Positions 40,320-62,778 of a DNA stretch of 64,000 bases are shown piece after piece. Location of the stretch: contig OZ246394.1 of assembly GCA_965230895.1 (NCBI GenBank), forward strand, positions 1,377,887 to 1,441,886, in the 5' to 3' direction. Below the pieces are notes generated by a model, which was given only the letters and a program-made list of their open reading frames with translations, was not told where the DNA came from and made no database searches. Both the position numbers and the translations under genes were made by a program. Position 1 is the first letter of the stretch; the number at the start of each line of letters is the position of its first letter. Source of the DNA: an uncultured Gammaproteobacteria bacterium (lineage in GTDB: Bacteria > Patescibacteriota > Microgenomatia > Levybacterales > UBA12049).

Positions 40320-41285
40320 TCAAGGACGAATTAAGGCTTTTATAGCCTCAGAAAAGCGTTTTCGTTTAAGAATTATAAACAGTAAGAATATTAAGACTAA
40401 GACAAGCCCGAATGCATGAGCAAACGGAAATACAATAAAATATCTTTCATCTGTAATAGTTTGACCGTTGCCTGTCGAGACGGTTAGCGCTGCCCTATAA
40501 ATGTTTGGAGAAAGACCTTGAATTTTAGCTTCTTCAGTCCATCTTCGGACACCACCTGGGAATATGATTTTCTCTTCAAGTTCGATCTTTTGTTTGCTGG
40601 TTGCTGGAATAAGTGGTTCAACTGTCAGATCTGGTTTTGCTGAGAAGAAATTCAAGGCGATATTTTTAACGCGTAATAATAAAGGAACTGTACCTTCTTG
40701 ATTCCAGTAAGGTAAAGAAAAATCAAGAATCTCAGCTTTCTTTGCATTTGGATCTGGAACGCCGATGTTTGCGAGCATTAAAATTCCGACTTTGGCATTA
40801 ACTCTTGTGGCGTCAGTGGGAGCGTTCACTAAAACTGGTTCAAAAAAGAGTACACCATAATATCCACCAACAGGAATTGATTTTGGTGTCTGTATTGCCA
40901 TCTGTAATGTTTTCTTTTCCTTGGGACCGAGGATGAATTCGTTCTCGCTTAATGAAACCCATGAAAGAAGAGGATTCGTTTTTGATTCTTCAAAGATATA
41001 TCCACCTTCTTCGCCACTTGTTATGAAATCATTGAAAGATGCACGCAATGGCATAGGGGATGATGATAAGTTTTCGATTGTCACTTCCTGTTGTATTGTT
41101 TTGTCTGGGGATAAGGAAAGATTCATTATGACAGGTGACACTCGAAGTGTCTGCTCTTGTGCATATGCATTTTGAGCAGATAACAACGATACCACCATTA
41201 ATAATGGGGTCATTAAAGCTAGGTTTATACACTTTGATATATTAAATCTCATATTTAGCCATGAACTATTAATAACTAGGTACAA
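40320..41285 (-). CDS. cassette A2: paralogue of A1 (signal peptide, C-terminal TM anchor, basic tail)
   Basis: C-terminus LVLVLIFLLFIIL-KRKRFSEAIKALIRP. Overlaps B2 by 17 nt. Confidence 0.5.
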   Translation of the reverse strand: MYLVINSSWLNMRFNISKCINLALMTPLLMVVSLLSAQNAYAQEQTLRVSPVIMNLSLSPDKTIQQEVTIENLSSSPMPLRASFNDFITSGEEGGYIFEESKTNPLLSWVSLSENEFILGPKEKKTLQMAIQTPKSIPVGGYYGVLFFEPVLVNAPTDATRVNAKVGILMLANIGVPDPNAKKAEILDFSLPYWNQEGTVPLLLRVKNIALNFFSAKPDLTVEPLIPATSKQKIELEEKIIFPGGVRRWTEEAKIQGLSPNIYRAALTVSTGNGQTITDERYFIVFPFAHAFGLVLVLIFLLFIILKRKRFSEAIKALIRP

Positions 41286-42366
41286 CTATATATAATACGG
41301 TACTACTATACTTAGCTGCCTTTTGAGATGCAGCGGTTTGGACTCTATATGTGATCGTAAATTGCTCGTTAACGATAGCTGAAGTCACAGGTCCTGCATG
41401 ATCAGCTACTGGGTCTCCTGGAGTAGAGGTTGTGAATCCTGCATACTTAGGTCCACCGATGGTGAATCGGTCCGCCGTTCCTCCAGTTAAGCTACTATCA
41501 TTTGTAGTATAGCCGAATCCGTTGCCTGACCATGTCGTTGGTGCTGAATTTGGACTTGAATAATCAGCAATCGTGCCAAATCCTGTTGCCGTAAGTGGTC
41601 CAGTTGATCGTGCGTTAACCACATAACCATTATATGCATTGGTTGAAGTCGTAAGTGTCGTTGTTTTACTACCATCAGTATAGGAATTTCCGGAGTTCAG
41701 ATTGCTGAAAGTTACGTTATTTGAATCAACACTAAAGGTGAGGGAGGGCGTAGTCGTTGCCGCTTGCGCTGTTGGTCCGTATTCACTCTCAGTATAATCT
41801 CCCTGTCTAGCCTTTACTTTAATAGTATATGTTGTTCCTTGTAATAGACCCGTTACATATTCTCCGCTGGCTCCGCCCCAGTCCGTATAAGTTTGGAAAT
41901 CAGCACTTGTTAATGTCGTTCCAATAGTATTGTCACTTTTGATATAGCGGACGTCACTGACGAAATTATCAGAACTTATGGAAATAGCATATTCAGCATC
42001 GGCGGGATTATTGCTTGTATTGAGTATAAATTGTAAGCGGTCATAATTACTCGATGGATTTGTAAAAGTCGGTACTCCAGGGACGTGAGCTTTCATAATA
42101 TAAGTCAGTCCTGACCCCATTTGGAAATTTGTACTCGAAGGTCTCCCAAATTCTATTTGTCCAGCTACGCCATAGAGTCCAAAGTTACTTGAGGTACTAT
42201 TCGTTGTTCCACCGGAACCAAACGAATATTCCTGAATTCTGTAGTTGGTACTGGCTGGGTATGCAGCAAACGCAATAAGGGTGAGAGGTGAGAAATGAGA
42301 TGTTAGAAATATGATCAAAACCAGAATGGGCAGTTTATGTTTCATACTAATAGTATACCTACTCAC
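41269..42366 (-). CDS. cassette B2: paralogue of B1
   Basis: C-terminal block PTTWSGNGFGYTTNDSSLTGGTADRFTIGGPKYAG...STVLYIVVPSY aligns with B1. Confidence 0.5.
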   Translation of the reverse strand: MSRYTISMKHKLPILVLIIFLTSHFSPLTLIAFAAYPASTNYRIQEYSFGSGGTTNSTSSNFGLYGVAGQIEFGRPSSTNFQMGSGLTYIMKAHVPGVPTFTNPSSNYDRLQFILNTSNNPADAEYAISISSDNFVSDVRYIKSDNTIGTTLTSADFQTYTDWGGASGEYVTGLLQGTTYTIKVKARQGDYTESEYGPTAQAATTTPSLTFSVDSNNVTFSNLNSGNSYTDGSKTTTLTTSTNAYNGYVVNARSTGPLTATGFGTIADYSSPNSAPTTWSGNGFGYTTNDSSLTGGTADRFTIGGPKYAGFTTSTPGDPVADHAGPVTSAIVNEQFTITYRVQTAASQKAAKYSSTVLYIVVPSY

Positions 42367-42387: not shown

Positions 42388-42807
42388 CTAGATTGGCAAA
42401 TAGAAGACTTGTAACCCGAAGAGGGCATGGAGGTACTCAAACGTAGCGATCTGAGGAATACTTTTTTTGTTACAGACCACTGACATAATTGCTTTCGAAA
42501 ATGTCAGGTCTACTGAATCGCTCGATTCAACCGTTCTGATGGCTTGCTTCATCTCTGCGGATTCAGGAAAGATGATATTTATAGAACTTAAAGATATTGC
42601 TCTCAGATAATCTCGAGCTAGGGAAGGGCTGATCGTATTGTAGATAGTCGTGTATGTGTCATTCACCGTCATAATGCTTGCATATAGCTGATATTTCTCC
42701 TGGGCGAAGTATCTAAAGTACGCCGAAGCTTGCACATGTTTTGGATGTGCTCGATCTATAAAGGCGATGAAGCCATCTGGTGCTATGTATACTTTTTTAC
42801 TGACCAT
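42388..42807 (-). CDS. PIN-like protein (possible VapC-type toxin), low confidence
   Basis: N-terminal VYIAPDGFIAFIDRAHPKH resembles the PIN first strand/acidic residue. 139 aa. Immediately downstream of an HTH gene. Confidence 0.3.
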   Translation of the reverse strand: MVSKKVYIAPDGFIAFIDRAHPKHVQASAYFRYFAQEKYQLYASIMTVNDTYTTIYNTISPSLARDYLRAISLSSINIIFPESAEMKQAIRTVESSDSVDLTFSKAIMSVVCNKKSIPQIATFEYLHALFGLQVFYLPI

Positions 42808-42823
42808 AGATTAGGTTTGAAAC

Positions 42824-43180
42824 TTATTTTTCCTGTAATACCAGTCCAGCCCCTCTTCCTTGTAGTCTAAGCAGGGGATCGTCCTGTGTAAATTGTTTGT
42901 CCAATAAACGGTTACTTTTGAAGATTCTTGGTTGTTGTTCTGCGGTTGCTACTTCTTTGTGAAAATCCTGCAATGAGTCTTCTTCTACCCGAATGTTGCC
43001 ACCGACCTTTATCGCTTTTAGTCGTTTGTTCTTTATATACCGACGAACTGTCAGGGGGTGGACTCTAAGAATAAACGCTACTTGCTTAACGCTTAAAAGA
43101 TTATTCATATATCTATAGAGTAAAACGTATTGGCTGGAGAGTAAAGAGCCACTTTTATCTATCCATGAAAAAGTATGCAT
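42824..43180 (-). CDS. excisionase-family (HTH_17) DNA-binding protein
   Basis: LSVKQVAFILRVHPLTVRRYIKNKRLKAIKVGGNIRVEEDSLQDF matches the MerR-superfamily/excisionase HTH. First gene of the operon, divergent from the 2527-aa gene. Confidence 0.55.
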   Translation of the reverse strand: MHTFSWIDKSGSLLSSQYVLLYRYMNNLLSVKQVAFILRVHPLTVRRYIKNKRLKAIKVGGNIRVEEDSLQDFHKEVATAEQQPRIFKSNRLLDKQFTQDDPLLRLQGRGAGLVLQEK

Positions 43181-43279: not shown

Positions 43280-46200
43280 ATGAAGTATATCTTGCCCGTC
43301 CTGCGCCAAAAATCTTATTTGAGGCTAACTAGCCTTATTCTTTGCGTGGTAGTAGCTTCGGGAAGTATATTCATGGCTATCAAGCCTGCTTTTGCTGCTA
43401 CAGGAATTAACCAGACCATCAACTTCCAAGGTAAGTTAGTCGGTTCAACAGGATTGAATGTAGCTGATAGCACGTACAGCGTCGTTTTCACGCTCTATGA
43501 TGCGAGCTCAGGAGGCACGAACCTCTGGGACGAAACGCAAAGCGTATCGACCACTGATGGTATCTTCCAGGTTCAGTTAGGTTCAGTCGATACAACTTTG
43601 GGCAATGTCGATTTCAACACAGATAATCTCTATCTCGGCATCAAAGTCGGAGCTGATGCAGAAATGACTCCTCGTATTCGTTTTGCGGCAGTTCCATATG
43701 CCTTCAATGCTCAAAAAGTAGCAGGTTTGACAGTCACAAATACGACTGGAACACTTACTATACCAAATGGCAAGACAATCGAATTTGCCGACTCATTCAC
43801 TACTACAGGGGGAAATGCTCTAACTCTAGCCACAACTGGCACTACAAGTATCACTTTGCCAACTACAGGCACCCTACTGACAAACACTGCCACATCAAAC
43901 CAAACGATTACATCGACTCAGACTTCAGGCACGATTTTGGGATTAACTGACTCAACAAACATTACTGGCGCAACTACAGGACTAGCCATAAGCATGACTG
44001 GTACGGGTGCGTTTGATCAGACTGGCTTATCTTTTAACTTGTCTGGAGCAACTGGATCCAACACAAATGATATCGTCGGATCCGGTGGGACATGGAAAGT
44101 TAGCAGATCTGGTGACCTTACTGTTAATTCATGTACAGGTTGTACTGGCGGCCTAGCTAATTATTGGAGACTGGCAAATGGTGCATTCTCACCTGTCAAT
44201 GATACGACTGATCTTTTGATCGGAAGTGCAGCTTCAGCGTCTGCGAAGTTTGGCTTCCTCAACGTCGCAAATGGTGGAACTCCAACCGCATCTATCTCCG
44301 CCAACTCCGGAAATAATGCGACATACCTCATGGGTACCGGTATTCTCGCAACAACAAACAAACAAACGCTTACCTTGGGTCAAGCATCGACCGGAAATAT
44401 TGTAATTGGTACGGATGCTACTGCGCGCACTGTTACGATTGGCAACAATACTGGAGCGAGTGCCTTAGCGTTTACTTCAGGGACGGCAGCTCAAACATTT
44501 ACTTCATCAGCGACTACAGGAACAGCATTCTCTTTTGTCGGTAACTCAGTCAACACAGGAACTGGTCTTGGATTGACTGCAAATGGTTTGACGAATGGTA
44601 ATGCACTTTCAGTCACGTCAACTGCGACAGCGCTTGGATCAGGAAGGATGCTTAATATATCAAAGACAGGAGCTTCTGGATCAACTGCCTTCACAGGCGA
44701 TATCGCAAACATTGCTTACTCACAAACATTCAACAATGGAGTTGGCCTTAATCATACAGGCAATGTTATGGACCTCTCCCGAAATATTACATTGAACGTA
44801 GCTCAGACTCAAACAATTTCAGGTGCATTGATGTCACTCTCTGATTCAGCGACACAATCACTCGGTACGCTTAACAGCACAGCAGATGTCCTTGCGATCA
44901 CTCAGAACTATGCAGCAAACACTGGAGCTGCATTGAATATAACATCTGCTACAAATAATGGCTTAATCTTCCGAGCGAATGATGATGGAACTCTCACTGA
45001 TTCGACCCCATTTGTTATAGATGGAGGTGGTGAAGTCGGTATCGGGACAACGGCACCAAACGCTACATTGGATGCTCGAGGAATCCTCGGGACAACTCCA
45101 GTCGCTTCATTCTCTGGTTCTACAGCGATGGCATCAATGGTCGTTGACCAATCAGGCATTGGAGATCTCTTTACCGCGAGTAAATCCGGAGCTACCAAGT
45201 TTGCCGTTTTAAACAATGGAAACCTCTCTATGAATAACTACAACAACTGTACGATGTTGACGACAATCGGAACTGTCTTAACTTGTGGCTCTTCTCCAGC
45301 TGCGTCTACACAATATGTTCGATTAAATAATGGTGCCTTCTCATTTGTGAACGACACGGCTGATTTTCTTATCGGAAACACATCATCAGCCTCAGCGAAG
45401 TTTGCTTTCCTCAATGTGAACTCTGGAACACCAACTGCATCGATTTCTGCGAATTCTGGCAACAATGCTGCATACTTTTCAGGAGATGGTGTCCTGGGGA
45501 CAACTAATGCACAGACATTGCAATTAGGATCAGCGTCAACCGGAGATATTCAATTAAAGCCTGGAAATAATGCAAATAGTTTATATCTTGCTTCAAGTGG
45601 ACGAGTAAGTATCGGAAATCCTGCATTAACAACAGGAGTTGTAAATCTCGTAAATAATGGTCTTCCAACGGGTGATCCAACTTTGGTCATCCAACAAGGT
45701 ACAGGACAAACCGGAGACTTGATGCAATTCAGAAATTCCTTGGGAAATCTCATCGGCAAAGTTGATTCTTCAGGAAATATCGCAGCGCCAAACTTTGTCG
45801 ACCTTGCGGGAACAGGTCCATATCTATCCTTCGGAGGCGCAGCAACAATTTTGGATACTCGTACAGGGAGCAATACTGGATTAGTTCTCAAAGCCGGTGG
45901 AACAACACAAACAGGTAACTTGCTTGAAGTACAAAATAATGGCGGTGGAGTGCTTTCAAAGTTTAATGGCATCGGCCAGTTGGGTCTCGGTGCTGGAACA
46001 AATAGTTTGCTTGCGACACTTGATGCTCGAGCCCTCTCTGGTACGCAGCCAGTGGCATCTATCTCCGGACAAACAGCACAATCCTCATTGGTTGTTGATC
46101 AATCAGGAACTGGTGATATCTTCGCAGCTTCAAAGTCTGGCGCGACAAAGTTTGTAATCAATAATGCTGGTAATGTACGAATTGCGAACTTTACTTCAAC

Positions 46201-49200
46201 TGATGGTCTTATCACAGCTGATGTTAATGGAGTCTTAACACAAAATGCAAATGCATCACTCAATAGTTTTGGTGACCTCAATACTCGATATATTACGACG
46301 AACGCTACAGTTGAAGCGAGAACCTATCAAGCGAATGAAAACGCGTTAATTGTTAATCAAGGTTCTACTTCACCAACAGCTGCGGCAGCGCTCATTAAAG
46401 GTGGTACAACTCCAGGGGCTACTGCAGATCTTTTGCAACTCCAAAACAGTGGAAGCACTACGCTTGCACGATTCAATAGAAATGGCCAATTAGTAATCCA
46501 AGCAAATGGTGGCACAACACCAAATGCTTCAATCTCTGGAACTACAAGTTTCGCGTCTCAAATCGTTGATCAGGCTGGTGTAGGTGACATTTTCACTGCC
46601 TCAAAATCTGGTGCAACCAAATTCACAATCTTGAACAATGGCAACCTCTCAATGAACAATTACAATAACTGCGGAATGTTAACAACAACAGGAACTGTTC
46701 TGACATGTAGTTCTGCACCGGCAGGTGGAACTAACTATTGGAACCTCGCAAGTGGAACTTTGGCTCCAGTAAATACGACGCTTGATCTGTTGGTCGGAGG
46801 GACAGCCAGTAATTCAGCAAAGTTCGCAGTACTTAATATGAATTCAGGAACTCCAACAGCAAGTATTTCAGCAAATTCAGGTGGGAATGCAACATACCTA
46901 ACTGGAGACGGCACACTGTCCACAACACTTAATAAGACATTGAGTTTGAATCCAAATGGAGGAAACGTAGGAATCGGGACAACAAATGCTACACAAAAGC
47001 TTACAGTGAATGGAAGAATCAGAACAGATGGAGGTATGGTCTTCAGTCAAGGATTAGCTCCAACAGCTAATTTCATTTATGTCGGAGGAGATACTGCTGG
47101 CGCTACAGATCAACAGTTTGGGTTTGTCCTTGCAGGAGTTGGTTCAACCACAACTGCACAAGGAGGATACTTTGTAGGCCGCGGAAATAACTTTAGTGAC
47201 ATCTTGAATCAGAGAGGAAATATGTATTTTGCTGCAGGTAATCCAAGCTCACCAGGCGCACTTGAAGGATCGCTCAACTTCTTAACAGGAAATGAAGTGA
47301 ATAGAATGATGATTACAAACGCTGGTACCATCGGTGTTGGGACGACATCTCCTTTGGCAACACTTGATGTTCGAGGACAATCTGGAACACTTCCAGTTGC
47401 ATCTGTTTCAGGTCTTACCGCAATGGCGGCTTTGGTTGTAAATAATAATGGCATAGGAGATCTCTTTACAGCGTCAAAGAGTGGATCTACAAAAGTTGCC
47501 ATCACAAACACAGGAACACTCGCAGTTGGTTCATTTACACGAGCATCAGCTGCGACAACTCCAAAGGATCAACTCCATCTTTGGGGCAATGGTTCGTTGG
47601 GGAGTAATGCAATTATCCATTTCGGTGACGTCGCTAATGATTCCAATGCATATATTAAAGAAGCAACAACAGGTGATAGTGATCAACTGGAACTTGGTGG
47701 GCGACAAGGTTTGATCTTTGCAACTGGTACAAATACCTCTTATGGATTTGAACGAATGAGAATCGATGCAAGTGGAAACGTGGCAATTAATAATACTGGA
47801 ACTGCACAAGCTACATTTGATGTTCGAGGCATATCAGGTACAAATCCAGTTGCATCAGTATCAGGTACAACTTCACGGGCAGCAATGGTGGTAAACAATG
47901 ATGGTGTGGGAGATCTCTTCACTGCAAGTAAATCTGGATTACCAAGATTTGTCATCGACAATAGCGGTAATGTAAAGATCGGTACATCAGTATCAGGTGC
48001 AAGACTTCAAGTAACAGGAAACAGTGGTTATGGTGTACTTCTCGGCGCTGGTGCTGGTGGAGGAAATACAATTGACGGAACTTTAAATGGTGTAGCAAAT
48101 GAAGCTTTATGGCTTAACTCAATCTCAGAAAAAGATGTTTATATCGTTCCAAATAATGGAAGTGTCGGTGTTGGTACGAACGATTCAAGTGAGGGAAAGC
48201 TCACCGTAGCCGGGACATATACGAACGCAGCTTCTGATTATTCCGGTCTATTCGTCAATCCAACCTTTAGCCAAACGAGTAATAGCAGTAATGCATATTA
48301 TGGAACTCGAACCCAAGCTCTCTATGGAAGTGCATTTAACCTTGCAGAATTGGATGGAGCAGTCAATAACAGTGCCTTCTATGGAGCGGGGACACTCACG
48401 ATCTTGCGAGGATCATACAATCAGGCAAGTATCTCTCAGGGGACCACCGGTACTGCAAATTATGCTCAAGGTGTGGTTGGTGAAGTTGTCCATCGAGGCG
48501 TGGGAACAATTGTAGAAGCAACAGGTCTCGTTGGTACCGTCAGTCTCCAATCAAGTGGCACAGGTAACGATGGAGAAATCACAGGAGCTGCAGGTGTGAT
48601 TGGTTATGTCCAAAATAACCTCAGTGCAAACACAGGAACAATTGGTACCGGAACAGCGATCTATGCAGGCGCACCAACCGCATCAGCAAATGCTCCAATC
48701 ACAAACACAAGAGGTGTCTATATCGAGAACCAAGGATCTGCTGGCGTAACCAATGCAACAGGTCTCTACGTAGAAGGACAAAGCGGAGCAAGCGGCACAA
48801 ACTATGCCGCAATCTTTGCTAGTGGAAGAGTAGGTATCGGTACAACTGGACCTGCTGCGGTTTTGGATGTAAATGGAGATATTAAGGCGAGTGCAACAAT
48901 AACAAATACAGGATCTCTTGCTGGGCTTTCTATGGCAGTGGGTAATGATTCAGATGCAGATACACTCAGTGCTCTTTCAATTGATGTTACATCCGCATCC
49001 ACTGGAGATTCTGATAATGTCTACGGTCTTAATGTTGGCAATTTGACGGGAGCTGGTTCAACAGTAAACGAAAGTGGAATTAGAGTTGGAACTGGCTGGG
49101 ACAATGATATTGAATTCTCAGATAGTGCTCCAAATATCAAACTTGGTGCCACAGATAATACTTCAGAACTTACATTTACTGATGCTTCTTCAAATGTTCT

Positions 49201-50863
49201 CTTGAGAATGAGAGATATGAGTACTAACTTTGGAGCAGCGCTTTATGCGGGTGCATTTATTAACTTTAACAGTATGGTAGCTGAAGAATTCAATAGAACC
49301 CGTACTTCATTGTCTGCTGATACAACTGGTGCTCAGAATGGTGCTTTTGGTAACGGTGGTGGATGGGGTGTTTATGAAGGTGGAACAACTCCGAATTGTA
49401 CCTTTTCGACGCTTGCAGATACTGTCAATGGTATTACTCGCATGTCAGCGAACGCTGCTGCAACAGGTTGTATGACTATGATAGATGACTCAATAAATAA
49501 CGCAAAGCTTATGTATAACGTTTCAAATCTGCCAATCATCGTTATGAAAATTCGACCATCCCAAGCTGATACTACAAGTGGAGTATATGCTGGATTAGGA
49601 GATTCAACTGATGGTGCTGTTGCTGCCCCCACTAATTTTATTGGATTTTCAAACGATAATGCTGGAACACTTGGAAACACTTGGAGAGGCATTACTCGAT
49701 CAGGAGGAACCTCTACTACAGTTACATGTACTGGACAAACAGTTTCGACAACCCAATTTGCACTTCTTGTTATTGAAGTACGATCTTCTACAAGTGTTCG
49801 ATTCTTTATGGATAATGATGTTTCAAATGGTGTCAATTTGACTGAATGCGGATCGGGGAGTACTACCAATATTTATACAAGTAATCTTGCTCCTCAAATT
49901 CATTGGCAAGAAAGAAGTGGTGGATCAGCTTCCAATTTGGACTTAGACTTCTATCGAACTTGGCAGGACGATGCTCCAATGACTGATGGACTTACTGCTT
50001 CGCAGCCAGAAGCTTTAACTTTTGACGCTCCAGCTTCTGAATCAGCCACACTTGATACTCATGATGTTGTCTTGAGTACCTTAACTCAAGATGAAACAAG
50101 CGAGGGTGCAGATATCGAAGATGATACAACTGGAGAACTTTTAGCTGGACTGGATCCATTAAAAGGACGAGTTGATGAACTTGAAAATAAAGTTGCTTCA
50201 ATGGAGGCAAAACTTAATGATGTCAATATTGCAACACCGGCTGCATTTACAACTGTGTCTGTCGAGTCATCAAACTCTGCAGAAACAACTGAACTTGTGA
50301 AAACAGATAACTTGTCAGTTGCGGGGCTTGCGACTGTTTCAGCGAATTTGAGAGTCCAAGGGAACGGTTTGATCGAAGGTATCCTCAATGTCGTCGATAC
50401 ACTTACGGTAAGCAATTTCATCGTCAATAAATTGGCAACATTCTTTGGTGACGTTGTTTTCCATAGTGATGTCATTTTCAAAGGCACACCATACTTCAAT
50501 GCAGACACTGCTGGTTATGTCACTATCGCAAAGGGTTCAGACAAAGCAGAAGTGAAATTCACTAAGCCATACAAGAATGAACCAGTAGTCAATGCAAGTG
50601 TTGTGACGACAAAGCTTTCAGATGATGCGTTCAAGAAGCATGTTGAAGAAAACACATGCGAAGCAGATAAAGGAAAAGATATGTGTGAGCAAGTTGCTAC
50701 ACAAGAAGCGCTTGAAGATTCAATGCCATACATTATTGCATCTCGATCCAAAGAAGGATTTACCATTTTACTTTCTCAACCAGCCACCCAAGATCTAACG
50801 TTCTCATGGAGTGCGCTTGCGGTGATTCAGGCAGAAGAACTTGTGAAAGGAGGTGATAGATAA
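43280..50863 (+). CDS. giant secreted repeat protein (2527 aa), fibre/adhesin-like
   Basis: Signal peptide (AFA|ATG). N-terminal FQGKL...VPYAFNA domain. Five 60-aa LDxRG...GDLFTASKSGATKF repeats. Many IGTT.P...L.V.G beta-repeat motifs. C-terminal coiled coil (RVDELENKVASMEAKLNDV). Terminal domain shared with the 1433-aa protein. Confidence 0.7.
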   Translation: MKYILPVLRQKSYLRLTSLILCVVVASGSIFMAIKPAFAATGINQTINFQGKLVGSTGLNVADSTYSVVFTLYDASSGGTNLWDETQSVSTTDGIFQVQLGSVDTTLGNVDFNTDNLYLGIKVGADAEMTPRIRFAAVPYAFNAQKVAGLTVTNTTGTLTIPNGKTIEFADSFTTTGGNALTLATTGTTSITLPTTGTLLTNTATSNQTITSTQTSGTILGLTDSTNITGATTGLAISMTGTGAFDQTGLSFNLSGATGSNTNDIVGSGGTWKVSRSGDLTVNSCTGCTGGLANYWRLANGAFSPVNDTTDLLIGSAASASAKFGFLNVANGGTPTASISANSGNNATYLMGTGILATTNKQTLTLGQASTGNIVIGTDATARTVTIGNNTGASALAFTSGTAAQTFTSSATTGTAFSFVGNSVNTGTGLGLTANGLTNGNALSVTSTATALGSGRMLNISKTGASGSTAFTGDIANIAYSQTFNNGVGLNHTGNVMDLSRNITLNVAQTQTISGALMSLSDSATQSLGTLNSTADVLAITQNYAANTGAALNITSATNNGLIFRANDDGTLTDSTPFVIDGGGEVGIGTTAPNATLDARGILGTTPVASFSGSTAMASMVVDQSGIGDLFTASKSGATKFAVLNNGNLSMNNYNNCTMLTTIGTVLTCGSSPAASTQYVRLNNGAFSFVNDTADFLIGNTSSASAKFAFLNVNSGTPTASISANSGNNAAYFSGDGVLGTTNAQTLQLGSASTGDIQLKPGNNANSLYLASSGRVSIGNPALTTGVVNLVNNGLPTGDPTLVIQQGTGQTGDLMQFRNSLGNLIGKVDSSGNIAAPNFVDLAGTGPYLSFGGAATILDTRTGSNTGLVLKAGGTTQTGNLLEVQNNGGGVLSKFNGIGQLGLGAGTNSLLATLDARALSGTQPVASISGQTAQSSLVVDQSGTGDIFAASKSGATKFVINNAGNVRIANFTSTDGLITADVNGVLTQNANASLNSFGDLNTRYITTNATVEARTYQANENALIVNQGSTSPTAAAALIKGGTTPGATADLLQLQNSGSTTLARFNRNGQLVIQANGGTTPNASISGTTSFASQIVDQAGVGDIFTASKSGATKFTILNNGNLSMNNYNNCGMLTTTGTVLTCSSAPAGGTNYWNLASGTLAPVNTTLDLLVGGTASNSAKFAVLNMNSGTPTASISANSGGNATYLTGDGTLSTTLNKTLSLNPNGGNVGIGTTNATQKLTVNGRIRTDGGMVFSQGLAPTANFIYVGGDTAGATDQQFGFVLAGVGSTTTAQGGYFVGRGNNFSDILNQRGNMYFAAGNPSSPGALEGSLNFLTGNEVNRMMITNAGTIGVGTTSPLATLDVRGQSGTLPVASVSGLTAMAALVVNNNGIGDLFTASKSGSTKVAITNTGTLAVGSFTRASAATTPKDQLHLWGNGSLGSNAIIHFGDVANDSNAYIKEATTGDSDQLELGGRQGLIFATGTNTSYGFERMRIDASGNVAINNTGTAQATFDVRGISGTNPVASVSGTTSRAAMVVNNDGVGDLFTASKSGLPRFVIDNSGNVKIGTSVSGARLQVTGNSGYGVLLGAGAGGGNTIDGTLNGVANEALWLNSISEKDVYIVPNNGSVGVGTNDSSEGKLTVAGTYTNAASDYSGLFVNPTFSQTSNSSNAYYGTRTQALYGSAFNLAELDGAVNNSAFYGAGTLTILRGSYNQASISQGTTGTANYAQGVVGEVVHRGVGTIVEATGLVGTVSLQSSGTGNDGEITGAAGVIGYVQNNLSANTGTIGTGTAIYAGAPTASANAPITNTRGVYIENQGSAGVTNATGLYVEGQSGASGTNYAAIFASGRVGIGTTGPAAVLDVNGDIKASATITNTGSLAGLSMAVGNDSDADTLSALSIDVTSASTGDSDNVYGLNVGNLTGAGSTVNESGIRVGTGWDNDIEFSDSAPNIKLGATDNTSELTFTDASSNVLLRMRDMSTNFGAALYAGAFINFNSMVAEEFNRTRTSLSADTTGAQNGAFGNGGGWGVYEGGTTPNCTFSTLADTVNGITRMSANAAATGCMTMIDDSINNAKLMYNVSNLPIIVMKIRPSQADTTSGVYAGLGDSTDGAVAAPTNFIGFSNDNAGTLGNTWRGITRSGGTSTTVTCTGQTVSTTQFALLVIEVRSSTSVRFFMDNDVSNGVNLTECGSGSTTNIYTSNLAPQIHWQERSGGSASNLDLDFYRTWQDDAPMTDGLTASQPEALTFDAPASESATLDTHDVVLSTLTQDETSEGADIEDDTTGELLAGLDPLKGRVDELENKVASMEAKLNDVNIATPAAFTTVSVESSNSAETTELVKTDNLSVAGLATVSANLRVQGNGLIEGILNVVDTLTVSNFIVNKLATFFGDVVFHSDVIFKGTPYFNADTAGYVTIAKGSDKAEVKFTKPYKNEPVVNASVVTTKLSDDAFKKHVEENTCEADKGKDMCEQVATQEALEDSMPYIIASRSKEGFTILLSQPATQDLTFSWSALAVIQAEELVKGGDR
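45040..47990 (+). repeat. five near-identical intragenic repeat units (about 180 nt each) inside the 2527-aa gene, nested in three larger repeats of about 1.2-1.4 kb
   Basis: Protein repeats at nt about 45040, 46020, 46530, 47330 and 47810. SGTPTASISANSGNNATYL recurs at about 44280, 45420 and 46860. Nucleotide-level similarity is visible (e.g. GGAGATCTCTTTAC(C/A)GCG). Confidence 0.6.
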
Positions 50864-51066
50864 TATGGAACTTTTACGTTCACGTGTGCAACACATGCTC
50901 GATGACATAAGAATTTTGTTCTTAGCGCCAGTCTATTAGATCCTGTTTGAAAAGTACTCATCTGAGAAGACTTTTCATTACAGGGTCTTATGTGGCTGAT
51001 TTATAATTTAATGGAAATCAGCCGCTTAGATTGCATTTGTCCCAGTTAAAGATTTTGGTTTTGCTT

Positions 51067-51169
51067 ACTCTTTGAGGAGTGTATTCCTTCATTAATGTAC
51101 CGATGTCATCCCTCAAAATAGTCATTCAGCCACTGGCAGGTCCTCAAGCTGAATGCACCCTCAAAGAGT
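51067..51169 (+). promoter_or_regulatory. leader with alternative pairings: ACTCTTTGAGG can pair with any of three downstream CCTCAA(A/G) copies; inner CATTCAGC/GCTGAATG stem
   Basis: Inverted repeats read directly. Located about 60 nt upstream of the beta-lactamase-like CDS. Confidence 0.3.
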
Positions 51170-51232
51170 ATCGAGGCTAATGGAAGGCTGTAATGTTGAG
51201 CTTGCTTTATAAAATATGTATTTCGTATACTT

Positions 51233-52186
51233 ATGACCGTGGGCGGAAAAGTAATGAGATACGTGTTAATCGTAAGCTTGATTCTCAATGCAGGTCTCCT
51301 GTATTGGTATGTATTTCGTGGAGAACAACCTCAGGGAACTGTAGCTAATATTACAGCAGAGAACAATTACCCGTTATTGTCAGCAGATATTTTGCATGAC
51401 CTTCAACGCGATGTCTTAATCAATTTCTATCCATTAAGGACAGAATTGCGTGAGGCAGTCGAACCTTATGGAGATGACTTTGGATTTTATTTCGAATATC
51501 TTCCGACAGGTACCTCGATTAGTGTGAATTCAAATGACGAGTTCTATGCAGCATCGCTTTTTAAAGTTCCTGTTGTCATGGCATACTATCATGGGAAAGA
51601 GCGCAAGAGGATGACGGATGATCCTGAAGTGGAAATAAAGCAAGAACATCTTGATAAAGAGTTTGGTGATTTATGGAAGAAGGGAGCGGGGACGAAGATG
51701 AAAGCTTCAGAACTCGTCCGATTGTCACTGGTCGAATCAGATAACACTGCGATTAAAGCATTGCTTCCAATTATTGAGCAGCAGGATTTCGTTCCTGTCT
51801 ACAATGGGTTGGATATTGATTTGCATGCAGATAATAATGGTGCGTTAATTTCCGCAAGGACATATGCCTCAATCCTTAAAGCATTACATTATTCATCTGT
51901 TCTTAATAAAGAAGATTCTGAAGAGATTCTCCAAATGCTTTCAGAGACTCCATTTAAGGATAAGATCGTTGCAGGTGTACCTGAAAATATCAATGTCGCC
52001 CACAAAATTGGCGACTTTAGTGCAGGGGAGACAGATCAAGGGTATAGAGATTGTGGTATTGTTTATGAGCCTCGACGTCCATATATTCTTTGCATGTTTT
52101 CAAAAAGCGATGAAGCGACTGCGAGAGAGCGAATGAAAATGGTTTCCTCAAAAGTCTACAAATATGTCTCGACAGTAGCTAAGTAG
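51233..52186 (+). CDS. class-A beta-lactamase-like serine hydrolase, membrane-anchored
   Basis: N-terminal TM helix. SxxK (SLFK). SDN (ESDNTA). KTG-like (KIGD). Confidence 0.6.
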   Translation: MTVGGKVMRYVLIVSLILNAGLLYWYVFRGEQPQGTVANITAENNYPLLSADILHDLQRDVLINFYPLRTELREAVEPYGDDFGFYFEYLPTGTSISVNSNDEFYAASLFKVPVVMAYYHGKERKRMTDDPEVEIKQEHLDKEFGDLWKKGAGTKMKASELVRLSLVESDNTAIKALLPIIEQQDFVPVYNGLDIDLHADNNGALISARTYASILKALHYSSVLNKEDSEEILQMLSETPFKDKIVAGVPENINVAHKIGDFSAGETDQGYRDCGIVYEPRRPYILCMFSKSDEATARERMKMVSSKVYKYVSTVAK

Positions 52187-52230
52187 CTCGTTTCCTTGAC
52201 ACGTGCGCTCAACTATCTCATAATTAGCTT

Positions 52231-52956
52231 ATGTCTACAGAAGCCTCTGAACAAAAAAAGAAGAAGTTTGGTACGAAATCAATGTTGCTTACTGTATTGT
52301 TTGGCATTATCGTTGCCGGGGCTCTTGGTGGAGCAATCTATTACTTTATGCAATATCAAAATACCCAGGCACTATTGAAGGATCCAACCAAGGCAAGTGC
52401 GGAGAAGTCAAAGTTATTGGTTGAAGAAGTTGGAAAGCTTATGGTACTTCCTCCAAACGAAGCCCCGCAAGTAGCAACTGTATCAGACGTTAACAAACTA
52501 AAACAACAATCATTCTTTGCTCAAGCGAAGAATGGAGACATTGTCTTGATATATACACAAGCGAAAAAAGCAATTCTTTATGATCCAACCCAAAAGAAAG
52601 TTGTTGAAGTTGGCCCAATTAACTTGAGTGATACAACAGCACCTTCAACAGCTCCCGCAAACTCTGCTGTTAGCCCTACAGAACTCCGTGTAGTGCTCTA
52701 TAACGGTACCAAAGTTACTGGCTTATCGAGTACGACAGAAAAAGACTTAACAGCGAAAATGGCGAATGTTACTGTCGTTGCTAAAGGCAATGCTGTTAAG
52801 TCTACGTATACCAAAACAATTGTGGTTGATGTAACCGGTAAGCAGTCTGCAGGTGCCGCTCAAATTGCGAAAACACTTGGTGGAGAAGTTGGTTCTCTTC
52901 CTTCAGGTGAAGCAAAGCCGGCAAATGCTGATATTGCTGTCTTCCTCGGTAGATAA
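52231..52956 (+). CDS. membrane-anchored LytR_C (LytR/CpsA/Psr C-terminal) domain protein
   Basis: TM helix, then C-terminal LRVVLYNGTKVTGLSSTTEKDL...ADIAVFLG matching the LytR_C pattern. Confidence 0.5.
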   Translation: MSTEASEQKKKKFGTKSMLLTVLFGIIVAGALGGAIYYFMQYQNTQALLKDPTKASAEKSKLLVEEVGKLMVLPPNEAPQVATVSDVNKLKQQSFFAQAKNGDIVLIYTQAKKAILYDPTQKKVVEVGPINLSDTTAPSTAPANSAVSPTELRVVLYNGTKVTGLSSTTEKDLTAKMANVTVVAKGNAVKSTYTKTIVVDVTGKQSAGAAQIAKTLGGEVGSLPSGEAKPANADIAVFLGR

Positions 52957-53112
52957 CCAATTGTGATATAATACCTTCAAGACGATGTCTTATCTCGCGT
53001 AAGCGAGAAATAAGAGTAAATCCGGTATTCTAGGTATTCAACTTCAGGTTAAGACCTCACAAGTCACTTAGGATGAGTTACGGAACTCGTATCGAAAGGG
53101 GGTGAATCCTAA

Positions 53113-53412
53113 GTGGCAAATCAAGATCAACAAATTCAATGCAAAGACTGCGGTAAAGACTTTACTTGGACTGCAGAAGAGCAAGAATTCTATCAACAAA
53201 AAGGTTTCAGTGCACCATTACGTTGCAAAGATTGTCGTGCAAAAGCGCGAGCAAACTTTGATAACAACCGAGGCGGTGGAGATCGAGGTGAAAGACAATC
53301 CTTCGAAATCACTTGTTCAGAGTGTGGCGCAAAAGACACAGTTCCTTTTAAACCGCGAGGTGACAGGCCTGTTCTTTGCAGAAACTGTTTTAGAAAACAA
53401 AAAGGTGAATAA
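53113..53412 (+). CDS. double zinc-ribbon protein (zf-trcl-like), GTG start
   Basis: CKDCGKDFTWTAEEQEFYQQKGFSAPLRCKDCR and CSECG...CRNCF. Preceded by an AAGGGGG ribosome-binding site. Confidence 0.55.
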   Translation: MANQDQQIQCKDCGKDFTWTAEEQEFYQQKGFSAPLRCKDCRAKARANFDNNRGGGDRGERQSFEITCSECGAKDTVPFKPRGDRPVLCRNCFRKQKGE

Positions 53413-53440
53413 CTAGAAGTTCTCTAAACGAAACTTAGAA

Positions 53441-53468
53441 ACGCAGGGCGAAAGCTCTGCGTTTTTTG
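53441..53468. terminator. bidirectional intrinsic terminator
   Basis: ACGCAGGGCGAAAGCTCTGCGTTTTTT, with an A-rich tract on the other side for the convergent minus-strand gene. Confidence 0.65.
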
Positions 53469-53512
53469 TTGGAAGAAATTATTGAATAATAATCATGCAA
53501 AAATGAACAACC

Positions 53513-55720
53513 TTAGTTTGCTGGTTGCTCATTTGCCGCCTGACTTGGAGATGGATTTGTTGCTGGAATCGAAGGAGCAGGGATTTGCTCTCGTGGATTC
53601 CTCTCAGGCAATGTTGTTGATGGTCGGTTTACATCTATTTGCTGTTCTGCTTCTTCACCAGTGTTTGCTGGAGTTGCAGATTGGCTTGCTGTTTGTTGCT
53701 TGCTACCTTCGTTAGTTTGCTCGTTTCCTTGCTGTCTCTTGTTCAAGTTCGCGATATCAGCGTCAATCTTCGCTACATTATCTTTATTGTCCGCAACTAA
53801 TTGCTTAACGATATTGTATGCACTCAATGCTTGAGCATATTCACCCTTTTCTTCAAGAGCGTGCCCCAAATTGTAGTATGCATTTGCATAATCCTGTTTC
53901 AAATTGATTGCAATCTGGAATTGTCGGATCGCATCATCATATTTCCCCAATTGGTAGTATACGCCACCCAAGTCAATATATTGTTGTGGGTTATTTGCAT
54001 CAAGTGCGATAGCTTGTTGCAAAGTAAGGATAGTAAATTGATCGGCATTTTCACCAAAGCCGATCAAACTTCGGTAGATTGATGACAAGTTATTCCAGTT
54101 AAATGAGGTCATAGGGGAAACAGTGACTGCTGTTCTGCCTGCATTGATTGACTGCTGAATCAACGTTAAGATATTTTGCTGTGTTTGTGCGCTTGGAGAT
54201 GCTCCTTGTTGATTTACTGCGAGTGCATTAGCCAAAGCGAGATTTGTTTGTGAGAAAGATCGATAGTAGATGTCTCGATATGGGAATGTGTTAATTGAAG
54301 CAGCCTGCAATTCATATGTTGTGATGCCATCGTTTTGTGACGCAGCAACCAATGATCTCTGGAAAAGGAGGTCAGATAATGTGAATCGTGCTACAAAGTA
54401 GAGCGGAGCACCGATGACGACGATTACAAAGATTATGAAGACGATTGGAAGAATCTTACTAAATCTCTTTTCTGAAGCACTCTGCTCAACTCGATCTGAC
54501 TCAGGTGTAACGGCTAAGAAGCCTTTTTTGAAAGCTACTAAGTACATTTCAGCTTCACCAAATTTGCCAGGATTGTTGTGGATGCAAACGACAGCGAACA
54601 AAGCTAATAAGATAAAGAATAGTGCGATAAGAGTAAAAGAGAATGGCAAAGCAATAGCTGCTACGATCGCTAAGATCAATGGGAGGAAAAATGTCTTTTG
54701 CTTTAATACTCTTAAGATAATAAATCCGAATGCAACTAAGCCTAAAAGCCCTGTGGTTGCGAGCAATTCGAGCACGAATGAACTTGACCGGAAGAATGTG
54801 AATGCCCATAGCGTAGGGTTTGTGTTATATACAGCAGGCTTGAATTGAGTGAAATCATTAATGTATGTGCCAAACCCACTTCCGAGCAAGAGACTCTTAA
54901 ATATATTTGATGCACCTTGTGAGATTGCTGACATAGCTGTCTGCAATCCAGTATCAAATGGTAAAATAAGCGGCTTTTGTGAAGTGAAAAGCATATACAC
55001 AGTTAAACTCAAAGCAATAGCAATTACCGCGAATCCAACTGCAAAGCCAGCCATAGGTCCGCCTTTGCCTTTTCGAGCTCCTTCACCTTGTGCAGTCTTT
55101 GACGCGTTAAGGTAGTTGTAACCGAAATAGCCTGCGATTGGTAATACAATTGCGAGGTAGAGTGCCTGATCAAGCAACGATCCGAATGTGGTAAAAGCTT
55201 GAGATTTTGCATAGACAAATGGCAGTAAATGAATGTTAAAGAATGAAAAGATTGTTAAAATAGCCGAAACTGAAGCTCCAAGAGTCAATGCTCCTAGAAG
55301 AAAAAGCAGATGTTTTTCAGTTCGTACTGTATTTACAACTACAAAGTAGAGAAGCATGACAAACAATAATGGAGTGAATGCAATTAACGCGTCATATCTA
55401 TTGATACTAAAAATAGCTGAAAGTAATGTCACAACTGCAAATATCCCAACAGGAAGATCAAATGGAGAGGTCCTGAGTTTCAACTTTCCTTCAAAGAGTG
55501 TTTTAACTCCAAATAAAACAAGAGCAATGGATGTAAGACCGATAAGTAACAATTGCTTTGGTAATACAAACGCGTCAGTTGTACTACTTAGAAAGAGGAG
55601 CGGGAAGACGACGAAAAGTATGGCGACAACAAATAAACTTGCGCTTTCTAAATAAGATGTGATTCCTTTTTTTGTTCCGGGCATAGAATTGAAAAATAGA
55701 TCTCTATTAAACTCTACCAA
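53513..55720 (-). CDS. O-antigen-ligase/Wzy_C-like polytopic membrane protein with C-terminal TPR repeats
   Basis: More than 10 hydrophobic helices. C-terminal TPR (YYQLGKYDDAIRQFQIAINLKQDYANAYYNLGHALEEKGEYAQAL). Q/N/P-rich tail. Confidence 0.55.
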   Translation of the reverse strand: MVEFNRDLFFNSMPGTKKGITSYLESASLFVVAILFVVFPLLFLSSTTDAFVLPKQLLLIGLTSIALVLFGVKTLFEGKLKLRTSPFDLPVGIFAVVTLLSAIFSINRYDALIAFTPLLFVMLLYFVVVNTVRTEKHLLFLLGALTLGASVSAILTIFSFFNIHLLPFVYAKSQAFTTFGSLLDQALYLAIVLPIAGYFGYNYLNASKTAQGEGARKGKGGPMAGFAVGFAVIAIALSLTVYMLFTSQKPLILPFDTGLQTAMSAISQGASNIFKSLLLGSGFGTYINDFTQFKPAVYNTNPTLWAFTFFRSSSFVLELLATTGLLGLVAFGFIILRVLKQKTFFLPLILAIVAAIALPFSFTLIALFFILLALFAVVCIHNNPGKFGEAEMYLVAFKKGFLAVTPESDRVEQSASEKRFSKILPIVFIIFVIVVIGAPLYFVARFTLSDLLFQRSLVAASQNDGITTYELQAASINTFPYRDIYYRSFSQTNLALANALAVNQQGASPSAQTQQNILTLIQQSINAGRTAVTVSPMTSFNWNNLSSIYRSLIGFGENADQFTILTLQQAIALDANNPQQYIDLGGVYYQLGKYDDAIRQFQIAINLKQDYANAYYNLGHALEEKGEYAQALSAYNIVKQLVADNKDNVAKIDADIANLNKRQQGNEQTNEGSKQQTASQSATPANTGEEAEQQIDVNRPSTTLPERNPREQIPAPSIPATNPSPSQAANEQPAN

Positions 55721-55825
55721 GTTATTTTAGTGGTTGTCAAGTTTAATATTACTATATTTATTGTGGACTGGTATTTCATATTTTTGCCTCGATTTCCCTA
55801 TACTATTATATAGTTCATAAAGTTA

Positions 55826-58800
55826 TTAATTAACAATCCACCAGTTAAATGTGATATCTTTTGTCGCATTATTTGATATTTGGATAGTGAAAGATCCTTT
55901 TTTGCCAGTTTGTGTATCTTGAGCTGTTTGCCGAGCTACATAAAGTGTCATTTTCTGTGTATCAGACGTCGCTGTCACGTAAATCAATGAATCCTTTGTC
56001 ACGTAAGGAGTGAAAATTGTTCGTTCTTTTTGTTTTGCTTTAATGATGCCTTTGCCAGCTGAATTATTGGAAGTTGTTTCAACGACTGAAGTATCTGCTT
56101 GTACTCCTCGTACAATATTAATATTTGCGAACTTACCTGCACCGGATGCTTCAACATCACCTTTTTGGCTGACTCGTACAACATCTTTTCCTTGATTGTT
56201 CTCAACTGTGAGGTCTGAACCCGGAACTGGCGCAATGATGTTTGCTGCCAATTTTCCTTTAACCGTAACATCCTTTGCAAAGAATGCATTACCATTTACT
56301 TCGAGATTACCTTGGGTATCGATAGCAACTTTACCATTGACGAACTCTACGCCATTAAATCCATCTGATTGGATTCGAAGTGGACCTGAGGCCGTATTAA
56401 TTGTAGCAGTGCCTTCATCATCAAGTCCGTTAATGTTCATGAGTCCTACTGTCACTTTTCCAGTAATTCCAACGTCAGAAAGGGTTGTTCTGCCAAGGAC
56501 AGAAAGTGTATTTGAAACTGTAGCATCCCGCGTGTCCAATTTCTCAAGTCCTAGTTCTGTTGGAGTTCGTAACGTATCCATGAATGTTTGTGGATCTTGA
56601 GAGAGCATTTCACTTACTTCTGAGCTAAATTCGGCAGCAGGGGAAGCTGCTGGACTTTGTGTTACTGAAGGACTTGCCACAGGTGTCGCTGATGGAGTGC
56701 TCATGATTCGAGTGATAGTAGGTGTCGGTATACTATTATAGATAGGCATAATCGTTGCTGCTGGAGATGCAACTCTTTGAGCCGCGACTGTCGCCGTTGC
56801 ACTTTGTGTTGCTTCACTAGCTTGAATAGCTGCAGTTGTCGCATTTGGTTGTGTGTATGCAATTTCTGCAGATGCAGTTGCTGCAACGGTTAATCCCTCC
56901 AATGCATCTGCTGATGGAAGATCTGTCTTTGCTTGTCCAGTGATTCTTTCAACAATTCCTGCGATGTAGTCATCTATGTGTTGTCCATTAATGAAAAGGT
57001 CGGTTGATGTAATGTTCAAACTTTGTGTAGTAATTTCGGTAACTTTTATCACTGACGCGATAAAGCCATTTTCAGCCTTTTCATTTTGTTGATCAGTTGC
57101 TGTAGCAATGCCTGCATTAACAGCCAAATTCAAATCGCCAGCATCTGTGACTTGTGATTGCGGAACCTGATAAGAGATATTTACGAATGACATTACCTTT
57201 CCAATAGCATTTGGATCAGTATTGTCATAACTTTCGAGTGCTCGAGCGATGATCTGTCCAGGTCGTGTCGCTTTCATCGCAACTCCTGGTATGTTTGAAG
57301 AGGTGAGGGGATCTCCCGCTTTAATCGCTCCATTACTTGTTGTCACTTTCACTGGCACTCTTCCTTGTAATGCCAATGGATACACATTTGGATGGTCAGC
57401 ATCTGGAGCTGCATCTGAATTGAGGGTAAAACCAGGCTTAGTTGATATGATACCTATCACTTGAGATTGGTATGATGTAGTTGATTTTACAACTGCTTGA
57501 TTGTTCTGGAGACTTTCAGGTATTACAACGTCACCTGGTTCAAGTGTTTGCGCTGAAACATAATTCTCTGCTAAGTCAGCTGCTTGTACTGTTGTGTTCG
57601 CTGCATAGATAGTTCCAGGTGTTGAACCAGCACAAGCGCCAGCAGTTGCTCGGACGCAAATAGAACCAGCAACATTAAATGCTCTGAGTGATTGATTCCA
57701 TGCAATTGATGGGTCTTGGACGAGTTGAGCATTTGCGCCAATAAATGGTAGTGCACCTGGTGTAAAACCAGTCAATGTAAAATTCTTTCCAGCAGCAACT
57801 GTCATTCCTTCATTTGCATTAATTAAACCATTGGCATTAACTGTACCGTTTAATTTACTTTCACCTTTTACTTCTATACTATTATTAATAGTCGTAACGC
57901 CTGTCTTTCCACCAAGTGAAAGGGTGGTGGCATTATCACCGATTGTTAAATTGGTTACATTTGTATTAGCAATACCGAATGTGTTACTGTTTGATGCTAT
58001 AGTATTTCCGTTTATAGCAATGTTTCCAGCGAACATTCCATCTCCTGCAGCGTTAACTCTGAATTTAGCAACATCATTGGCAAAACCGCTAATGATATCG
58101 TCACCTGAATTTTGTTTGACAGTAAGGGCTGAACGTCCATTTGTATTCCCGAGGATAGCAACGATGTCGGTAATTGTTACCGCGCCTGGTATGCCTGCAG
58201 CAGTGTTATTGCTTGTAGTATTTTGGATTGGAGCTTGCATGTCTATAATACCCGAACCATCAGTCGTTAATTGGATATTGCCATTTGATCCAGGGTTTGT
58301 AGTAAGAACCATTGTTTGGCCTGATAATGTAAATTGGCCTCCAGTAGCTTGGAATGTAGGACTAGCACTGCCTCCTATAGTTAAATCACCTGATGAGTCT
58401 AAAGCCAAAATTACGTTCTCAGTCGCCGCACTGTTTGTTATAGGCTTTAAGCCCTGTAGTGCTTGAGAATTGCTTGCTAAACCTGTTGTTGCGATCTGTC
58501 TTCGAGGCTGCAATTCTGCATCTCTTCCTACAGTCAAACCTACATAAAGGTTAGGGTTAGACGTAAGTAATTGCTGAGTTAGTGTTGCTTTCTTTCCAAG
58601 TGCTGTCGTGAAATAGCCATCCTGGTCTGGGGTTACACTTTGTGTTTCTTGCCAGAGCAATGCTGCTCCTGAAGCAGTTGGGCTATTATATAGCGCAAAC
58701 CGCAGCTTCGTTTCTGCGGTGATTGGTGTATTTGTTTTGTCCATTAGTCTTCCTTGGAAAGCGAGTGTTCGCGGAGGAGATATTGGTTGCGAGGCAAGAG

Positions 58801-60127
58801 CTGCAGTGTTTTTACTTGGTGGTTCAACAGCAGCCTGGTAACTTGCTACACCTGCAACAGCCATAGCAAATATAAGGATTGCGAAATGAATATGATGGGC
58901 GATAGGGTATGAATGATACTTCTTATACCATGCTGGACGAGTATGTCTCATATGGTGCCAGACTCTCTGATACCATGGTAGATTCTTAAGAGAAATACTC
59001 AATGGCGCATAAAACGATTTAGAAATATTCCTTACGAAATATGGTTTTGCTTTCGTCTTAATTCGGACAAGATCACCCACAACTGTAGCCGTCCTAGTGG
59101 TTATGCGAGTTATAGTACTAACCTTTTTAGGCAATATTACTTCTATTGGCTCAACCGGTAGTTTGTGACCGGCATTTTCTAAAATGGTGTTAACTGGAGT
59201 AAATACGCTCTTGCCTGAATTCTTCCATAATGAATATTGTACAGCCTCAGCACCTTTAGCTATAGGGTTAAATATTAGCGAATCAAATAGGTGACTGACA
59301 AACTTAGTCGTTTTTTGTCCGAGTCGGATTGGAGCAAAGCTGGAATATTTTGTCTCTTTCGGTAATTCTTCCTCAGGTGTGATTTCCTTCAAAGCGGTTA
59401 GGGGCAAGGGTGCTGCTTCCGGTATAATCTTTTGGACTATGGTCTCTTCAGGTTCAACTTTCTCAACCTTTTCTTCAACTATTACTGGTTCTCTTTTAAC
59501 TAGTCCTTGATCACTCAACCAACGGAGATATCTTCGAAGTGAGGAGAGCTTTCTATTTATAGATGTAGGTGAAAACTTCGAATCACTCATTAACCTTTCT
59601 TTATAATGCTCAACCGTTGCAGTATCTATCATAATGAATCGGTTATCCTTTGATACGATATCATCGACATTTACCTTCTCGAACCACAAAAGAAATTGGT
59701 GGATATCATGCAAATAATTCTTGATCGTTAATTTGCTGGCGCCAGTTGCAACGAGAGAATTTTTATATGGTTTTATTTGCCAAGGGTCTTCAATTACTTT
59801 CGGAGAATCGGTAATTATTGCGTCAAATGGATTTGCCTCAATCGCCCCAGAATCGCGTAGGAAGCGACAAAACTTTCTTAATGATGAAATGTACCTCTTT
59901 GCAGAACGAGTAGCGACGACAGAACCTTGACTGTTTTCATTAAGACTCTGTTGATAGTTCTTTATAAGCTCGGGAGATAGATTTGAAGCTGAAAATGTAC
60001 TACCCTCAGTCTTTTCATACCATTGAATGAACTTCCTTACGTCAGAAAGGTAGTTTTTCACAGTTACCTTGCTAGGTTTATTCCTGTCTGTGAAAAGATG
60101 TAATCTAAAATCATTTACTATATCCAT
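55826..60127 (-). CDS. giant membrane-spanning protein (1433 aa): two N-terminal integrase core-binding (SAM-like) domains, TM helix, large extracellular beta-rich region
   Basis: Core-binding-domain-like segments TVKNYLSDVRKFIQW...YISSLRKFCRFLRDSGAIEANPFDAI and TIKNYLHDIHQFLLWF...KLSSLRRYLRWLSDQGLV. TM helix HFAILIFAMAVAGVASY. FQGRL N-domain and C-terminal domain shared with the 2527-aa protein. Confidence 0.65.
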   Translation of the reverse strand: MDIVNDFRLHLFTDRNKPSKVTVKNYLSDVRKFIQWYEKTEGSTFSASNLSPELIKNYQQSLNENSQGSVVATRSAKRYISSLRKFCRFLRDSGAIEANPFDAIITDSPKVIEDPWQIKPYKNSLVATGASKLTIKNYLHDIHQFLLWFEKVNVDDIVSKDNRFIMIDTATVEHYKERLMSDSKFSPTSINRKLSSLRRYLRWLSDQGLVKREPVIVEEKVEKVEPEETIVQKIIPEAAPLPLTALKEITPEEELPKETKYSSFAPIRLGQKTTKFVSHLFDSLIFNPIAKGAEAVQYSLWKNSGKSVFTPVNTILENAGHKLPVEPIEVILPKKVSTITRITTRTATVVGDLVRIKTKAKPYFVRNISKSFYAPLSISLKNLPWYQRVWHHMRHTRPAWYKKYHSYPIAHHIHFAILIFAMAVAGVASYQAAVEPPSKNTAALASQPISPPRTLAFQGRLMDKTNTPITAETKLRFALYNSPTASGAALLWQETQSVTPDQDGYFTTALGKKATLTQQLLTSNPNLYVGLTVGRDAELQPRRQIATTGLASNSQALQGLKPITNSAATENVILALDSSGDLTIGGSASPTFQATGGQFTLSGQTMVLTTNPGSNGNIQLTTDGSGIIDMQAPIQNTTSNNTAAGIPGAVTITDIVAILGNTNGRSALTVKQNSGDDIISGFANDVAKFRVNAAGDGMFAGNIAINGNTIASNSNTFGIANTNVTNLTIGDNATTLSLGGKTGVTTINNSIEVKGESKLNGTVNANGLINANEGMTVAAGKNFTLTGFTPGALPFIGANAQLVQDPSIAWNQSLRAFNVAGSICVRATAGACAGSTPGTIYAANTTVQAADLAENYVSAQTLEPGDVVIPESLQNNQAVVKSTTSYQSQVIGIISTKPGFTLNSDAAPDADHPNVYPLALQGRVPVKVTTSNGAIKAGDPLTSSNIPGVAMKATRPGQIIARALESYDNTDPNAIGKVMSFVNISYQVPQSQVTDAGDLNLAVNAGIATATDQQNEKAENGFIASVIKVTEITTQSLNITSTDLFINGQHIDDYIAGIVERITGQAKTDLPSADALEGLTVAATASAEIAYTQPNATTAAIQASEATQSATATVAAQRVASPAATIMPIYNSIPTPTITRIMSTPSATPVASPSVTQSPAASPAAEFSSEVSEMLSQDPQTFMDTLRTPTELGLEKLDTRDATVSNTLSVLGRTTLSDVGITGKVTVGLMNINGLDDEGTATINTASGPLRIQSDGFNGVEFVNGKVAIDTQGNLEVNGNAFFAKDVTVKGKLAANIIAPVPGSDLTVENNQGKDVVRVSQKGDVEASGAGKFANINIVRGVQADTSVVETTSNNSAGKGIIKAKQKERTIFTPYVTKDSLIYVTATSDTQKMTLYVARQTAQDTQTGKKGSFTIQISNNATKDITFNWWIVN

Positions 60128-62777: not shown

Positions 62778-62778
62778 A

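Follow-up and report, generated by a model that had tools for sequence, protein, structure and literature searches.

Mosaic adhesive trimer (MAT) fibres, the surface fibres of Bdellovibrio bacteriovorus and other predators, are among the closest described parallels to the proteins analyzed here. They carry an invariable N-terminal domain (NCBIfam NF053851, Bdello_MAT_N) directly after the signal peptide, followed by a long fibre and swappable C-terminal tips that include lectin folds. Several paralogues occur per genome, in organisms whose lifestyle depends on attachment to other bacteria. The N-terminal domain is placed adjacent to the cell surface (Caulton et al. 2024, PMC10769870), and the tip types named in that paper, including its Supplementary Table S3, include S74, TNF-like, C-type lectin, FGE, beta-helix, collagen-like and invasin/intimin, as well as beta-sandwiches whose fold is unstated or novel. 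CPR bacteria are not listed in its survey table. A second described system is the Pam pilus, the genes of which were recently described in CPR bacteria, the group to which the uncultured, ultrasmall host of the present locus belongs. In Saccharimonadia and Microgenomatia, a tail fibre-like gene consistently co-localises with pam operons, and its product is central in the Pam neighbourhood network (Troman et al. 2026, 10.64898/2026.03.03.709456). The accessible text of this preprint mentions the co-localisation only, with no domain analysis, link to MAT or a lectin tip, or role. This gene probably belongs to the same family as the two genes analyzed here.

The window, i.e., the whole stretch of 64,000 nucleotides that was analyzed, encodes fibre protein A (43280..50863, forward strand; 2527 amino acids; A-type, secreted), which is also called on Logan contig SRR14271372_396, and fibre protein B (55826..60127, reverse strand; 1433 amino acids; B-type, membrane-anchored). 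Translation of both open reading frames reproduced the positions of the original prediction, and its reading of A and B as fibre-like modular surface proteins is supported. With a probability of roughly 65%, both are Sec-exported, host-binding fibres, probably trimeric, whose base lies near the membrane and whose distal tip binds glycans, and constitute the CPR counterpart of MAT. In such a fibre, a beta-sandwich of about 110 amino acids (the N-domain) would lie at the mature N-terminus beside the membrane and serve for basal attachment or as the base, a long Gly/Ser/Thr/Asn-rich shaft that varies between lineages would extend outward, and a C-terminal beta-sandwich of H-type-lectin/K1-lyase_C fold (the C-domain) would cap the distal end, where it most likely binds a host-cell glycan. 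The MAT arrangement of invariable N-terminal domain, long fibre and swappable tips, the several paralogues per genome and the attaching lifestyle recur in the A/B family, and neither N-terminal domain has a PDB homologue. Unlike the MAT hosts, the host of A and B is a monoderm-like CPR bacterium. Their genes adjoin pam pilus genes, B-type proteins carry a membrane anchor and SAM-like domains predicted to be cytoplasmic, and the H-type lectin/K1-lyase_C tip differs from every MAT tip type given above.

Alignment against shuffled controls had been proposed as a check of the two shared terminal domains, and both domains beat these controls. The N-domain (A: amino acids 41-150, 43400..43729, forward; B: amino acids 453-560, 58448..58771, reverse) aligns in BLASTP with 70.9 bits (E = 1e-15; 33% identity over 178 amino acids) and is 39% identical over the domain (MAFFT). 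Its Smith-Waterman score of 174 compares to 28.5 ± 4.8 in shuffles (z = 30), none of which reach it (0/1000). For the C-domain (A: amino acids 2407-2515, 50498..50824, forward; B: amino acids 1355-1433, 55829..56065, reverse; about 19% identity), pairwise BLASTP returns only a 21-amino-acid match (E = 0.025), and Smith-Waterman z-scores are 6.5 for the last 130 and 7.6 for the last 250 amino acids (0/1000 shuffles reach the score). Profiles that were each made from independent homologues of the A or B C-terminus match along the entire domain, with a probability of 92.7% (E = 4e-7) in a first hhalign run and of 95.6% (E = 1.2e-8; score 46.3) for profiles of 68 and 33 sequences, compared to scores of at most 18.2 for the reversed and 30 column-shuffled controls (shuffled E of at least 0.007). 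The predicted length of about 80 amino acids applies to the C-domain of B (about 79), whereas that of A spans 109 because a helical insertion of 37 amino acids with a Cys pair (amino acids 2446-2482; 50615-50725, forward) splits the beta-sandwich. Within the window, A and B are the sole open reading frames to carry either domain. They share their start and end because both are members of a very large family of tail-fibre-like modular adhesins. A and B, proposed to be paralogues, are not recent ones given identities of 33-39% (N-domain) and 19% (C-domain) and a convergent A/B gene pair that is conserved in two related loci (L003 and L018).

The N-domain, called distinctive in the original prediction, is not peculiar to A and B. 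It is among the commonest N-terminal modules of the protein library (63,406 clusters in an exhaustive search), with an N-terminal position in nearly all of the best 150 of these clusters, in proteins of 143-4643 amino acids. All N-domain sequences tested (14/14) match Bdello_MAT_N (best E = 5.4e-10), each below the 60-bit cut-off and over just profile positions 12-78 of 162; A matches with E = 8.3e-7 (28.9 bits) and B with E = 5.5e-4. This match and the sheer number of clusters suggest a spread beyond CPR bacteria, although all fetched loci with adequate flank look CPR. The N-domain of A is modelled by AF2 as a MAT-like beta-sandwich with a pLDDT of 82; that of B is a divergent subtype without the VPYAFNA motif (N-domain HMM E = 7e-45). 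Ahead of the domain, A has a predicted signal peptide (amino acids 1-39; 43280..43396, forward), recognized by eye from its basic n-region, hydrophobic core and A-x-A, with cleavage between AFA and AT. The A-x-A directly preceding [AS]TGIN is conserved among A homologues. In B, a transmembrane helix read from the sequence (amino acids 413-434; 58826..58891, reverse) has a basic flank (RPAWYKKYHSY), which implies an N-in/C-out topology; both hardly differ in the L018 homologue, and the N-domain begins 19 residues past the helix. As the predicted signal peptide and the signal-anchor helix account for export, the export part of the predicted export, anchoring or assembly role is unlikely. The N-domain is better read, from sequence, as a base or attachment module close to the membrane, since the copy in B lies so close to the helix and the MAT N-terminal domain is related. 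In A, the signal peptide would be cleaved and retention would have to come via the N-domain, while B would be tethered by its uncleaved helix with its two SAM-like domains in the cytoplasm. Paired cysteines found in a sequence scan are consistent with an extracellular location.

Both genes lie in a conserved pam neighbourhood, so that the fibres probably cooperate with pili when the cell contacts its host. Divergent from A is a pam-like pilus gene block (37761..42366, reverse) with pilin-like genes (41269-42366 and 39123-40265, reverse), chaperone-like membrane-anchored genes (40320-41285 and 38179-39123, reverse; WxLIP_PGBD-like domain and C-terminal transmembrane helix) and a 136-amino-acid open reading frame. 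Its NCBIfam matches to CPR_pilus_PamT (E = 2.7e-10) and CPR_Pam_pilin_C (E = 6.9e-6) are both below cut-off. A second pam-like pair (61755..63540, reverse) is located upstream of, and co-directional with, B and consists of a pilin-like gene (62779-63540; CPR_Pam_pilin_C E = 1.7e-5) and a chaperone-like gene (61755-62777; WxLIP_PGBD E = 0.011, C-terminal transmembrane helix). In the 59 related loci whose flank measures 6 kb or more, homologues of the pam-like block are found 5' of the fibre gene in 59/59 and 58/59 cases. All 59 have the Pam-pilin homologue in this upstream position, a median of 1.3 kb away, and in 26 it points the same way as the fibre gene, an arrangement that looks operon-like. 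Such proximity also fits a different arrangement, which is possible but unlikely: the fibres may form part of the Pam pilus itself or be its cargo, with the N-domain docking on a Pam subunit, e.g., by strand complementation. Candidate partners are the tip PamT, the base PamE/PamR and the membrane-anchored chaperones, and the pilus rather than the cell body would then display the lectin tip. The position of B 3' of the second pair and the central place of the tail fibre-like protein in the network of the Pam preprint (10.64898/2026.03.03.709456) agree with docking. The monomer model is poorest (pLDDT 47-76) for the N-domain segment that is conserved best (EMTPRIRF.AVPYAFNA), as expected if this segment folds against a partner, yet intertwining within a trimer explains this equally well. 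Furthermore, the N-domain of B directly follows its own membrane anchor, and hhalign does not relate the N-domain profile to any pam-like protein of the window (probability of at most 1.2%).

The shaft of A (43730..50158, forward) is rich in G/S/T/N/A, and a regex and repeat-HMM scan identified five 76-amino-acid repeats (amino acids 582-657, 899-974, 1055-1131, 1347-1422 and 1497-1572) and six GxVGIGT motifs, which are typical of tail-fibre-like proteins. No Pfam family matches it at E ≤ 0.1, and an HMM of the repeat has no match in B, the shafts being unrelated. A short putative neck, heptad/coiled-coil-like as read from sequence (amino acids 2294-2316, LKGRVDELENKVASMEAKLNDVN; 50159..50227, forward), resembles segments in the relatives P0017, P0038 and P0040. 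The pre-tip segment (amino acids 2343-2406; 50306..50497, forward) is beta-helix-like by eye, is conserved in P0017-P0019 and shows weak profile similarity, just before the C-domain (23 columns, E = 5.5e-4), to its equivalent in B (amino acids 1202-1341; 56105..56524, reverse; conserved in P0021-P0043).

B is a conserved variant in which two integrase-type SAM-like domains and a membrane helix precede the fibre, an architecture retained in L083, L084 and L018. The tandem SAM-like (core-binding) domains (amino acids 5-105 and 120-217; 59477..60115, reverse) match Pfam Phage_int_SAM_1 (E = 2.7e-17, two stretches) and Phage_int_SAM_4 (E = 3e-12); a recombinase catalytic domain is absent from B, which reaches 79 and 75 bits with the XerC/XerD models, where the cut-offs are about 330. 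The middle module of B (amino acids 849-986; 57170..57583, reverse; ADLAENY...GDVV...GIIS...GRVPVKV) resembles, through ADLAENY...GDVV...GIIS, the C-terminal intramolecular chaperone of the phi29/GA-1 pre-neck appendage (PF11962, Peptidase_G2). B itself has no Pfam Peptidase_G2 match; one relative reaches 34.6 bits (cut-off 25), over profile positions 34-99 of 228 only, and another 16.8. Unlike that chaperone, the module is internal, 370 amino acids ahead of the tip, and its cleavage is hypothetical; if it cuts itself in the manner of phi29 gp12, this would part the tip from the anchored portion. The module occurs in 92 open reading frames or proteins of the loci and representatives set, nearly all of them N-domain fibres, but is absent from A and hence not part of the shared feature. 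By composition, amino acids 1068-1171 of B (56615..56926, reverse) form an Ala/Ser/Thr/Pro-rich low-complexity linker.

The predicted tip role of the shared C-domain is supported by its fold: phage tailspikes, pyocin fibres and H-type lectins use this fold for a distal cap that often binds sugars. Its top matches include Helix pomatia agglutinin, discoidin I, SLL-2 and R-type pyocin fibres. A-type relatives exceed the Pfam threshold for H_lectin (PF09458; Helix pomatia agglutinin, discoidins) with up to 38.9 bits, and the B-type relatives P0042 and P0035 match K1-lyase_C (PF24146; C-terminal domain of the Klebsiella phage K1 capsule lyase) over the full profile and above threshold (38.0 and 35.4 bits). 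A itself, which differs from H-type lectins in its 37-amino-acid insertion, stays below H_lectin detection with the insertion removed or not, and the loop-trimmed domain of B, which ends in FNWWIVN, has a sub-threshold 17.5 bits for K1-lyase_C. The AF2 model of the A tip is not fully independent, as its alignment mixed A- and B-type sequences. Judged by its sequences, the fibre family is mosaic. A-position genes in syntenic relatives encode 913, 1533, 1823 and 2527 amino acids with N- and C-domains kept, in line with the predicted exchangeable centres, but tips swap too: an A-like N-domain is combined with a B-type tip in L025, L026, L032 and L051. About 40-50% of the N-domain proteins (28/56 complete open reading frames; 55/146 representatives) end in an A/B-type tip, and the remainder in other recurrent tips. 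Such swapping among like N-domains is expected of specificity modules. It makes it rather improbable that the C-domain is a cap for folding or trimerisation, a role argued for certain tailspike C-terminal domains, or a pro-domain removed after assembly, with host recognition in the shaft; the fold is, moreover, the sugar-binding unit of the lectins and pyocin fibres named above, and A has no G2-like module.

A and B are very unlikely to be prophage or phage-tail-like remnants with baseplate-attachment and receptor-binding domains, a reading to which the tail-fibre-like shaft motifs, the tailspike-type C-domain and the integrase SAM-like domains of B would lend themselves. The latter come without a catalytic domain, and the neighbours of A and B are housekeeping and pam genes in a chromosomal context; capsid, portal, terminase and tail genes are absent. 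The N-domain gave no tblastn match in 50,697 phage records, IMG/VR (2.9 million contigs) yielded no relative, and Foldseek against BFVD gave, at best, an E-value of at least 1.9e-3 and a TM-score of at most 0.5. A chance or compositional resemblance of Gly/Ser/Thr-rich proteins, which the weak C-terminal BLASTP match might suggest, is refuted by the N-domain shuffles (z = 30) and the C-domain profile controls (E = 1.2e-8 versus at least 0.007), neither domain being of low complexity.

Directly 3' of B lies a gene for a polytopic membrane protein with C-terminal TPR repeats (53513..55720, reverse; Pfam TPR_11 E = 3.8e-13), which is syntenic with B-type genes in L003, L018 and L084 and has homologues in L002 and L021, where the fetched locus holds no B-type gene. 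Between the pam block and A, an HTH_17 protein (118 amino acids; E = 1.5e-10) and a 139-amino-acid protein are encoded (42388..43180, reverse), which recur in 26/59 and 27/59 loci, respectively.

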